Origin: a virus
Taxonomy: Duplodnaviria; Heunggongvirae; Uroviricota; Caudoviricetes
Strand: one strand, 5' to 3'
IMG/VR virus record: IMGVR_UViG_2974506819_000001
Span: 98,789-162,788 of that record
DNA length: 64,000 nucleotides
Position numbers and translations under genes: made by a program. Positions 23,430-25,760 of the stretch are shown here, one piece after another (position 1 is the stretch's first letter; each line of letters opens with the position of its first letter). The notes under the pieces were generated by a model. The model saw only the letters and a program-made list of their open reading frames with translations, did no database searches and was not told the origin of the DNA.

Positions 23430-23515
23430 TCTATTACCCTGCCTCCGTAAGGGGGTGGGGTAATGTAAAGTTTTACCTCCTTCTTTATATCTATGCGAAA
23501 AACAAGGAATACATC

Positions 23516-23782
23516 ATGAATAACGAAACCACCGCTGTAGACGTTCCTGCTCCATTAACCAAAGGTCAGCTGTTGGCTCGCCTTGACCGCTACGGACCGG
23601 AATACTCGTTCCACAAAGACCTGGTCGCAATCGCCGATTTGGCTGACACGCTGTATACCCGCATGGCCATTAGCCGTAGTCGTCAGCACAACATTCAGAT
23701 TCGTGCGGCGCTCTCAAAATTAAGCGTGGCTGTCGATTGGACAGTTACCGTGTTGAAACAAGATATCGTGAGCTACGAATAA
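23516..23782 (+). CDS. Hypothetical protein (88 aa)
   Basis: ATG with SD aaggaa. Confidence 0.5.
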   Translation: MNNETTAVDVPAPLTKGQLLARLDRYGPEYSFHKDLVAIADLADTLYTRMAISRSRQHNIQIRAALSKLSVAVDWTVTVLKQDIVSYE

Positions 23783-23791
23783 GGACACGTC

Positions 23792-24253
23792 ATGGAAAAC
23801 GTATACTTGCCTGGATTACGTAATGCCCTGATGCTGGCATTCATTGAAGAAGCCCGCAGTACCGGTAACCAGGTCTACCTGACGTTAAACGCCCGTCGTT
23901 TAACTGACCCTGCATTAGCACAGTACATCAAAGACGGCGTCCTGACCATGAACGTGGCCATTCGTGCTACGCCGGGTTATGACGTTGAACCTGAATTCCT
24001 GATTCTGCATTCTTCCTTTAATGGAAAGAAAGCCCAGGTCTTTGCGTATTACGATGACGTGATGATGATTGTGGCCTATGATGAAACCCGTCAACCACGC
24101 GCCATGTTCCACATCACTGACCATCATCAGGTTTCTATCCAGATGGAGAACATCAACGCCGCAGCCTTTACGGAAACCAATCCGTTAGAAGCTGTAAACG
24201 AAGAAACTCCACCGCCAGCTAAAGAGCGTCCCAAACTCTCTGTAGTTAAATAA
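23792..24253 (+). CDS. sspB: SspB-like ClpXP specificity-enhancing adaptor homologue (153 aa)
   Basis: Colinear with E. coli SspB: LRNALMLAFIEEA, YIKDGVLTMNVAIRAT and FNGKKAQVFAYYDDVMMIVAYDETRQPRAMF match the SspB substrate-binding domain; C-terminal ...RPKLSVVK matches the ClpX-binding tail ...RPALRVVK. Confidence 0.6.
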   Translation: MENVYLPGLRNALMLAFIEEARSTGNQVYLTLNARRLTDPALAQYIKDGVLTMNVAIRATPGYDVEPEFLILHSSFNGKKAQVFAYYDDVMMIVAYDETRQPRAMFHITDHHQVSIQMENINAAAFTETNPLEAVNEETPPPAKERPKLSVVK

Positions 24254-24262
24254 GGGTGCCGT

Positions 24263-24607
24263 ATGCGTAAATGGTTTTCGGTATTAGGGCGCTACACGGT
24301 TGCCCTATGCCAGCTTGGGTTAAAACGTATTCTTCTTGGTCACCATACGCGTCGCCTCATTAAGAAAGAGGACCGTATCATTCAAGAGTTCGAAAGGGCA
24401 CTGACGGCACAAGGCAAAGCTTTGCGTAACCGGGGGTATTTGTCCCGGCAAAGCCTGAAGCACCTTACACTCCATCTGGCAGACGAATTGCACATGCAGA
24501 AGTGTCAGATTCGGAAAGTGACAGTAGAACTCATTGACGGTGATTTCTTTATTGATTTAGAAATCACTACCCATAACCGGACCGTGACCCGTTTGGTCGT
24601 TGTGTGA
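24263..24607 (+). CDS. Hypothetical protein (114 aa)
   Basis: ATG with SD aagggtg; stop overlaps the DHFR SD. Confidence 0.5.
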   Translation: MRKWFSVLGRYTVALCQLGLKRILLGHHTRRLIKKEDRIIQEFERALTAQGKALRNRGYLSRQSLKHLTLHLADELHMQKCQIRKVTVELIDGDFFIDLEITTHNRTVTRLVVV

Positions 24608-24614
24608 GGACAAC

Positions 24615-25193
24615 ATGAAAGTATCCATGATTCTGGCTATGGACCGCAACTGTTTAATCGGGAAAGGCGACCAACTTCCCTGGCGTCACCCGGAAGACCT
24701 GTTGTGGTTCAAACAGCAAACCATCGACAAACCGATTCTCATGGGACGTACGACCTATGAAGGATTAGGGCGTCCATTACCAAACCGCCCCAACATCGTG
24801 CTGAGTCGTGCTGACACTAACTTAGTGGGTGATGTAGCACGGGTGCAGTCGTATGAAGACGCACACTACCTGGCTAAGCAGTTGGGTTATGATGAGCTGA
24901 TGATTATCGGCGGCAAGCAGGTGTATGAGTCACTGATTGACCATGCTGACTGTATCTACGTCACGGTCATCGATCACGACTACAACGGTGACGTCCATAT
25001 GACCCATCCGTTGTTCGAAGCATTGGCTGGTCGGGACCTCTCTGAGAAGAACCCGGCCTTTACCAATCTCGGCTTTGATCGGTTGTTTACTCGCGACGGT
25101 GACGTGAGACATGTGTGGGATGTCGAGGTGTTGAACCGTGTCCTTAGCAATGATGTTATGCTCAATTTTGTGAAGCTAACACGTTGCCATTAA
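24615..25193 (+). CDS. frd: Dihydrofolate reductase
   Basis: Motifs MILAMDRNCLIGKGDQLPW, DLLWFKQQT, ILMGRTTYEGLGRPLPNRPNIVLSR; ATG 24615 with SD gagga (ORF-track 24600 is TTG). Confidence 0.85.
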   Translation: MKVSMILAMDRNCLIGKGDQLPWRHPEDLLWFKQQTIDKPILMGRTTYEGLGRPLPNRPNIVLSRADTNLVGDVARVQSYEDAHYLAKQLGYDELMIIGGKQVYESLIDHADCIYVTVIDHDYNGDVHMTHPLFEALAGRDLSEKNPAFTNLGFDRLFTRDGDVRHVWDVEVLNRVLSNDVMLNFVKLTRCH

Positions 25194-25202
25194 GGAAAGG
25201 AT

Positions 25203-25637
25203 ATGGGTCTGGGTTACATCGACGTTAAGCTCGATTCCAAGCAAGAAGATGACTTGATTCGGGACTTAACAACTTTAGGGATTAAAGCTCTACCAAAAGG
25301 GAAGTACCACTGTACTGTCATTTATGACAAACGTGAGGAACTTGATAAGCCGCTGTGCGACATCGACCCTGAGCAAGTCTTTGAAGCACACGTCGTGGAG
25401 GTTAAACCACTCGGAGATGCCCTGGTCTTTACTATGACGTCTAAAGATATCTATGATGAATTTAGACGATTGCAGGAAGCCGGATATCAGCACAGTTTCC
25501 CTGAGCTGTTGGTTCACATGTCAATTTGCTACGACTTCAGTGCGTACGACAAGTTGAAGGTGGAACAGTTCATGGGCCGATGGATAGGCCGCAACATTCA
25601 GTTCTCTCGCGAATCGTTACAACCCGTTAAGTATTGA
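25203..25637 (+). CDS. 2H phosphoesterase superfamily protein (LigT/Acb1-like), 144 aa
   Basis: Two H-x-[TS]-x motifs on hydrophobic strands ~70 aa apart: KYHCTVIY and LLVHMSICY; size typical of phage Acb1-type enzymes. Confidence 0.5.
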   Translation: MGLGYIDVKLDSKQEDDLIRDLTTLGIKALPKGKYHCTVIYDKREELDKPLCDIDPEQVFEAHVVEVKPLGDALVFTMTSKDIYDEFRRLQEAGYQHSFPELLVHMSICYDFSAYDKLKVEQFMGRWIGRNIQFSRESLQPVKY

Positions 25638-25760
25638 TGCTCCCCTGCCCTCGTCCTACGGGACGGGGGTGGGGTTAATCTATAAGAAATTTCATCTCTA
25701 AATTATTATCGTGTATGTAGACCACCTATATACACTTATCCAATCAAGAGGACACAAGTA

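Follow-up and report, generated by a model that had tools for sequence, protein, structure and literature searches.

The Escherichia coli protein SspB (P0AFZ3; PDB 1OX9, 1YFN and 8ET3) is a specificity-enhancing adaptor of the ClpXP protease. Its tail binds the zinc-binding N-domain of ClpX and the protein works mainly through tethering (PMC8138137, PMC9963277), the conserved portions of SspB being the dimer interface and the groove that accepts the ssrA tag (PMC9963277). Here we describe a divergent SspB-family protein, gp117 of Erwinia phage vB_EamM_RisingSun, the gene for which lies within a stretch of 64,000 nucleotides from IMG/VR record IMGVR_UViG_2974506819_000001 (positions 98,789 to 162,788), hereafter the window. 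Like bacterial SspB, gp117 is built in three parts, with a domain of helix and beta-strands, an acidic linker that is disordered, and RPxLxVVK at the C-terminus. It differs in that the EW..DN..TP motif of helix 1 has been replaced, the linker is shorter and an extra hairpin is predicted. It also differs in having a binding domain that evolves much faster, and in being encoded by a lytic jumbo phage.

A search with E. coli SspB returned homologues in 78 phage records, mostly from jumbo phages and including phiKZ gp232, and SspB-like proteins recur in jumbo and nucleus-forming phages that infect Erwinia, Pseudomonas, Ralstonia, Serratia and Xanthomonas; in Serratia phage Kodama the gene is annotated 'SspB-like protein'. 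One homologue that has been discussed in print is gp039 of RAY (Agricanvirus), another member of the Chimalliviridae that infects the same host species as RisingSun. This protein was considered a putative ClpXP adaptor of SspB-like type in 2023 and showed cytoplasmic localisation as a GFP fusion (PMC10299810). It shares with gp117 an SspB-like domain, a linker and an XB-like tail (KKPTLTVVK), as well as the PHROG-derived RefSeq name 'stringent starvation protein Sspb-like'. However, the two proteins are only 26% identical over 120 residues, their genomic neighbourhoods differ, and RAY gp039 keeps a classical N-Y..AN..TP motif, unlike gp117. The E. coli SspB query finds RAY directly (E = 1e-8), whereas RisingSun is not found at E ≤ 1e-3. 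A second example, gp18 of Pseudomonas phage pf16, figured as a phage SspB in a 2017 paper and was proposed there, by modelling alone, as a competitor for RseA (PMC5587285). It too has an XB-like tail but, unlike gp117, is host-like, with 53% identity to E. coli SspB. The phiKZ homologue gp232 also carries an XB-like tail, but is 302 residues long with a long insertion between domain and tail. We observed that the gp232 gene (L005:2971-3879) is unannotated in its record and encodes an SspB-like N-terminal domain with approximately 170 extra residues, the XB-like motif TPKLTVIK lying four residues before the C-terminus; the gene occurs in dozens of phiKZ-like phages.

The idea of a phage protein acting as an adaptor-like modulator of a host Clp protease has been tested experimentally for Gp53 of the Bacillus phage SPO1, which is the closest experimental precedent that we found. 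This modulator of ClpCP interacts in an adaptor-like manner with an AAA+ Clp unfoldase of the host and changes which substrates are chosen (PMC6873191). Gp53 shares this concept with gp117, but is an unrelated protein that works on ClpC in a Gram-positive host. A related logic has also been engineered. In CLIPPERs, which are degraders made with the XB peptide (PMC12373786), and in split SspB adaptors an XB tail combined with any target-binding module is enough for degradation that depends on ClpXP, and fusing the XB peptide to a bait suffices for the degradation of a protein that has no degron (PMC12373786). This is the logic we propose for gp117, although these are synthetic constructs, which speak to feasibility only and are not proof for the phage protein.

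A divergent member of the SspB family

The open reading frame (ORF) of gp117 starts with ATG and runs for 153 codons to a TAA stop, as given in a preliminary description made from the sequence alone. It is 100% identical to positions 122580-123041 of NC_042018.1, window position 23792 corresponding to record position 122580. A 2.7-kb stretch around the gene is 100% identical to RisingSun (NC_042018.1 / MF459646.1, 235 kb) and 96.7% identical to the sibling phage Joad. The sole ORF on the opposite strand encodes 70 residues (23915-24127, minus strand), no competitor of comparable length lies there, and a chance ORF on that strand was rejected. The genus Risingsunvirus is placed in the Chimalliviridae, the nucleus-forming jumbo phages (NCBI taxonomy), and the genome encodes the nuclear-shell protein chimallin (gp28) and the tubulin PhuZ (gp17).

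The preliminary description had aligned gp117 with E. coli SspB along its length and proposed comparison with the Pfam family PF04386 and with the SspB fold. The aligned segments and the homology were reproduced by BLASTP, Pfam and MAFFT. BLASTP paired residues 44-83 of gp117 with residues 44-83 of E. coli SspB (E = 2e-4), the latter sequence being 100% identical to chain Y of PDB 8et3. MAFFT aligned LRNALMLAFIEE of gp117 with RRPYLLRAFYEW of E. coli SspB, FNGKKAQVF with FGGIPRQVS, and ERPKLSVVK with GRPALRVVK. A search of PDB sequences reached only E = 0.017, with Haemophilus influenzae SspB. The match to PF04386 is borderline, with 27.0 bits at a gathering cut-off of 27 (E = 5.2e-6), and aligns residues 13-153 with model positions 6-156 of 156. 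A full-length match is made to PHROG 8945, which belongs to the moron/host-takeover category and is named 'stringent starvation protein Sspb-like'; here residues 1-153 align with profile positions 3-149 of 149 (E = 3.2e-64). The protein had been given this PHROG and name before, the latter in RefSeq, and is a stringent starvation protein in UniRef; the gene goes unmentioned in the original RisingSun paper.

We searched 1.84 billion representative proteins exhaustively with HMMER and obtained 15 relatives of gp117. A family profile made from 11 of these, which are 25-69% identical to gp117, recovered full-length E. coli SspB with E = 1.9e-21 and its substrate-binding domain alone with E = 5.4e-18, and nine of the 11 match PF04386. 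A word-indexed protein search recovered no more than six relatives, also when a profile was used. With tblastn against INPHARED the gp117 query found only RisingSun and Joad below 1e-5, together with two weak jumbo-phage matches, and queries with the proteins P0003 and P0007 added only Erwinia phage AH06 and two Serratia phages. Scans of IMG/VR with alignment A1, P0003 and P0005 gave no further relatives. We also observed that a protein of 3500 residues, P0006, contains 20 separate stretches that match positions 94-143 of the gp117 profile, the region of the hairpin and linker (E = 2.6e-10); this is probably an artefact of composition or of repeats.

In the AlphaFold2 model of gp117 the predicted local distance difference test (pLDDT) score is approximately 90 across residues 11-110. 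In the model an N-terminal helix packs against a small beta-sandwich, and the 15 PDB entries that Foldseek ranks as most similar all represent SspB. A control model ruled out that bacterial SspB sequences among those aligned had imposed the predicted fold. On these profile and model comparisons we regard membership of the SspB family and fold as firm. Functional equivalence to bacterial SspB we do not consider firm: gp117 falls below the cut-offs of all eight NCBIfam SspB equivalog models (PRK11798 models, 'ClpXP protease specificity-enhancing factor') and its pairwise identity to the SspBs of E. coli and the genus Erwinia is only 21-28%. The best equivalog score was 30.9 bits, where 135 were required, and the other models gave 14-28 bits for cut-offs of 162-319.

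The C-terminal tail and the substrate-binding domain

The last eight residues of gp117 form an XB-type motif, RPKLSVVK, in which L149 and V152 would correspond to L161 and V164 of E. coli SspB, the docking positions for the ClpX N-domain. The sequence RP[AS]LRVVK ends 78 of the 80 Enterobacterales SspBs that we fetched, a sample with seven Erwinia species (E. amylovora not among them), and the same tail, close variants counted, is present in 117 of 120 SspB protein clusters. We scanned approximately 214 kb of the 235-kb RisingSun genome in six frames for ORFs with an L-x-[VI]-[VI]-K end; record positions 100001-131000 were covered only through the window, and 231000-235108 lay outside the scan. 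Among 628 ORFs of at least 60 residues gp117 was the only one with this ending.

Only six alignment columns are invariant in the 11 relatives, and four of these fall within the tail (P147, L149, V152 and K153; hypergeometric p ~5e-5). The identity of the relatives to gp117 is 62-100% in the tail and 21-64% in the core, with the linker as the least conserved region at 4-56%. Comparing the last nine codons with three relatives, we counted 5-6 synonymous and 0-2 replacement changes, showing that the tail peptide itself is under purifying selection. The tail of ClpX-tethering type recognised in the preliminary description is thus present, and by these comparisons it is selectively maintained and is the best-conserved part of the protein. 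As an independent sample we took phage homologues found by tblastn with the E. coli domain, through alignments ending at or before residue 133. XB-like ends were seen here in RAY (KKPTLTVVK), pf16 (KKPTLRVVK), pEa_SNUABM_54 (SRPKLTIVK), FLC4-3B (KGFLSVVK) and phiKZ gp232 (TPKLTVIKGGKK).

Two further homologues from this sample, the SspB-like proteins of the Xanthomonas phages LucasX (L009:1453-2019) and RTH11 (L010:1495-2034), have no LxVVK tail. Both end in DFRA(R/P)RKP(S/K)S, which may be a different docking peptide for Xanthomonas ClpX or for some other partner.

Within the domain, the N-terminal helix is the counterpart of the dimerisation helix of SspB and, by analogy with the E. coli protein (PMC9963277), we infer a role in dimerisation. 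In a comparison of alignment columns the helix-1 motif Y12/R15/W20/D23-N24/T27-P28 has become A/L/E/S-T/Q-V in the RisingSun clade; most of this signature is kept by RAY, pEa_SNUABM_54, phiKZ and the Xanthomonas phages. The core of gp117 retains the motifs DGxLxxN[VI]..RA and FxG. Taking conservation as a stand-in for the residues that contact ssrA and XB, we compared the 31 domain positions that are invariant in five classical SspBs, ten of which (G49, N54, A59, F76 and G78 among them) are identical in gp117 and about eight of which show conservative changes. The predicted hairpin that follows the core extends in part beyond what is included in the solved constructs of the bacterial substrate-binding domain (~105-118 residues), and its motif xMxNxN is common only to the closest relatives, P0002-P0005. 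The linker has pLDDT scores of 40-57, below 50 from residue 128 onwards. It is unstructured and acidic, as had been described, but shorter than that of E. coli SspB, with 27 residues compared with 44.

Two metagenomic contigs allowed us to compare the rate of change of gp117 with that of its neighbours. In contig L002 the SspB-like protein is 69% and the product of the next gene, gp118, 59% identical to RisingSun, compared with 75-97% for the neighbours (RNase H 97%, Acb1 94%, DHFR 92%, gp116 84%, and gp113, gp115, gp121 and gp122 75-82%). In contig L013 the corresponding values are 31% and 28%, compared with 52-77% (Acb1 77%, gp116 61%, DHFR 52%). The SspB-like gene and gp118 are the fastest-evolving pair of their gene block in both comparisons. 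For the SspB domains of bacteria, by comparison, identity remains at 86-90% when Escherichia is set against Erwinia, Pantoea or Brenneria.

How gp117 may act on host ClpXP

The annotation of the RisingSun record includes no Clp (ClpX, ClpP) or Lon protease, and neither the window nor the further 216 kb that we fetched yielded a transfer RNA or a transfer-messenger RNA (tmRNA), the latter a possible SspB partner. With no phage Clp, Lon or tmRNA gene, any proteolytic role of gp117 has to rely on host ClpXP. In E. amylovora this protease is functional and turns over RpoS (PMC6386880). We propose that gp117, made in the host cytoplasm with its helix and beta-sandwich domain, flexible acidic linker and XB-type RPKLSVVK end, and probably dimeric, would behave like bacterial SspB in docking by its tails onto the zinc-binding N-domains of ClpX in the host, and would then re-programme the choice of substrate by ClpXP. 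In the version we prefer, the diverged domain would bind cargo other than, or besides, the ssrA tag, either a host protein or a phage protein, and tether it to ClpXP for degradation. By occupying the N-domains gp117 would meanwhile be a competitor of host SspB, and also of other substrates that depend on the N-domain. ClpX binding, dimerisation, the delivery of cargo and what that cargo is are all steps that we infer for gp117. We consider it likely that gp117 docks on host ClpX. Delivery of non-ssrA cargo is to us the best single reading, and to docking together with such delivery we give about an even chance.

A more orthodox role would have gp117 bind the host ssrA tag, RseA or both and boost the clearance of tmRNA-tagged products by ClpXP during infection, so that amino acids are recycled and ribosome rescue is sustained. 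Membership of the SspB family, the complete adaptor architecture and the several classical SspB motifs that are kept would all suit this role, and the copies in pf16 and Ralstonia phages, which are 41-53% identical to E. coli SspB, could plausibly act in this way. For gp117 itself we find it improbable. Plain ssrA binding is hard to square with a domain that changes fast while its tail stays invariant, a combination that fits either changing cargo or a decoy. The same conclusion is suggested by a domain that is only 31% identical between phages with Acb1 proteins at 77%, against 86-90% for bacterial domains, a rate far above that expected for a protein that binds an invariant tag of seven residues. 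The replacement of EW..DN..TP and the equivalog scores of 14-31 bits against cut-offs of 135-319, every one missed by more than 100 bits, also argue against this role and for a new cargo. In addition, no more than ten of the 31 classical invariant positions are identical, and the host genus already has an SspB of its own.

It is also possible, though we would put it on the unlikely side, that gp117 carries no cargo and acts as a decoy. Here the two XB tails of a dimer would saturate the ClpX N-domains and block host degradation that depends on SspB, RssB or the N-domain in general, shielding phage proteins from ClpXP or preventing host responses triggered by proteolysis, such as the degradation of antitoxins or anti-sigma factors. 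Strong conservation is confined to the tail of gp117, with a rapidly drifting domain, which would suit such a decoy. In support of the principle, free XB peptide inhibits the degradation by ClpXP of lambda O, FtsZ and substrates stimulated by SspB (PMC3983244). Knock-down of clpX raises the fitness of some phages, and viral copies of clpX without the zinc-binding domain have been interpreted as dominant negatives (bioRxiv 10.1101/2024.04.20.590424). A decoy would, however, have no need to keep G49, N54, A59, F76 and G78 in the region of the groove, though these may be purely structural, nor a linker of adaptor-like length, and in E. coli substrate-free SspB competes only weakly at ClpX (PMC9963277). 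Very improbable, in our view, is a role independent of ClpX or a gene in decay, with the SspB fold serving as a generic peptide or protein binder, chaperone-like or regulatory, and the tail inherited without use. The extreme divergence of gp117, the predicted extra hairpin (102-118) and the missing tails of LucasX, RTH11, P0012, P0015 and P0016 would be consistent with this. Set against it are the purifying selection seen at the codon level in the tail, the retention of the tail among relatives with only 25-38% overall identity, and an intact gp117 frame with conserved synteny in three divergent genomes.

Several observations weigh against cargo delivery, the reading that we prefer. A pure decoy, which needs only to fold, dimerise and show two tails, would account just as well for a conserved tail on a drifting domain. 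The helix of the dimer interface has diverged (equivalents of Y12A, R15L and W20E), and monovalent tethering is weak for E. coli SspB (Bolon 2004, as cited in PMC9963277). The gp117 tail differs at two positions from that of the host genus, with K in place of A or S and S in place of R. The conservation of the tail among the 11 relatives looks inflated, as they were gathered with a profile that contains it, and the tail is absent from the weaker hits P0012, P0015 and P0016 and from the two Xanthomonas phage homologues. Finally, our literature search found no biochemical characterisation, either of binding or of degradation, for gp117 or for any phage SspB-like protein. To this extent the novelty claimed in the preliminary description holds; the gene had nevertheless already been named SspB-like, and phage SspBs were in the literature. 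The SspB-like identity of gp117 is thus correct, but the annotation had it before. What we add is how selection has acted on the tail, the rapid evolution of the domain in company with gp118, the lost helix-1 motif and the cassette that contains Acb1.

The phage SspB-like proteins recur across jumbo phages and, on the example of RAY gp039, would be cytoplasmic, as is host ClpXP. In the RisingSun lineage an invariant tail, the putative docking element, is joined to a binding domain that evolves very fast. We can imagine gp117 as a natural, fast-evolving 'degrader', in which a constant docking tail and a diversifying domain, possibly with gp118, would send immune or regulatory proteins of the host to ClpXP. 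This would amount to anti-defence by targeted proteolysis, exercised beside Acb1 and recurrent in nucleus-forming jumbo phages. We consider this extended scenario speculative and rather unlikely. If phage SspB-like proteins do retarget or blunt ClpXP, this would represent a general mechanism of host takeover or anti-defence and a natural precedent for the tools of targeted protein degradation in bacteria.

The gene block and its surroundings

The gp117 gene sits in a block of five genes, gp116-gp120 (23516-25637), separated by gaps of approximately 9 nt or less. Both metagenomic contigs share the RisingSun order of gp116, the SspB-like gene, gp118, DHFR and Acb1. The coordinates of the features discussed here are given in Table 1.

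Table 1. Features of gp117 and the surrounding gene block, in window coordinates
Feature	Position	Strand	Details
Strong RNA hairpin 5' of gp116, 5' block boundary	23435..23462	+	fold of 23430-23495, -25.6 kcal/mol, z = -5.1
Shine-Dalgarno AAGGA, 6 nt 5' of the gp117 ATG	23781..23785	+	overlaps the gp116 stop codon; read from sequence
gp117 coding sequence, Erwinia phage vB_EamM_RisingSun	23792..24253	+	divergent SspB-family protein; YP_009612861.1
N-terminal alpha-helix, residues 7-24, counterpart of SspB dimerisation helix	23810..23863	+	AlphaFold2, pLDDT ~90
Beta-sandwich core of substrate-binding domain, residues 25-100	23864..24091	+	keeps G49, N54, A59, F76, G78
Extra beta-hairpin (predicted), residues 101-118	24092..24145	+	strands 102-108 and 114-118; both AlphaFold2 models, pLDDT 75-85
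Disordered acidic proline-containing linker, residues 119-145	24146..24226	+	27 residues, 6 E and 1 K
Putative XB-type ClpX N-domain docking motif RPKLSVVK, residues 146-153, extreme C-terminus	24227..24250	+	sequence match; candidate for ClpX binding
gp118, 114 residues	24263..24607	+	starts 9 nt past the gp117 stop; PHROG 27980, function unknown
gp120, Acb1 (anti-CBASS 2H phosphodiesterase) homologue, last gene of block	25203..25637	+	Pfam PF23474
Strong RNA hairpin 3' of the Acb1-like gene, 3' block boundary	25642..25674	+	-31.3 kcal/mol, z = -4.5

The two hairpins that flank the block carry the same exact 11-mer, GGGGGTGGGGT, and the segment folded at the 5' boundary takes in the hairpin and a second, weaker stem. 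No canonical U-tract follows either hairpin, and a scan for sigma-70-type promoters and terminators gave no excess over shuffled sequences. The hairpins are likely to be terminators or elements of RNA stability or processing that delimit a transcription unit. The product of gp118 has no match in Pfam or NCBIfam, and we searched it for a conserved C-terminal degron and found none. It may be a partner of gp117, which is speculative, or a co-evolving host-interaction gene.

The preliminary description had noted DHFR and a 2H phosphoesterase near gp117 and taken this setting to fit host takeover or anti-defence. We can now name the gene of the latter, gp120, as a homologue of the anti-CBASS protein Acb1, which fits a host-interaction cassette. 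The PF23474 model of Acb1, an anti-CBASS cyclic-nucleotide phosphodiesterase, covers the full length of gp120 and scores 50.5 bits, where 27 is the cut-off (E = 2.4e-13), and the protein is 77-94% conserved in the two metagenomic relatives. Its public labels are 'RNA ligase' (RefSeq) and PHROG 755, and the profile match suggests that the 'RNA ligase' label is probably wrong. Outside the window, RisingSun gp190 (L016:34840-36519) is a GroEL-type chaperonin, which together with the SspB-like gp117 makes two proteostasis-related genes in one genome.

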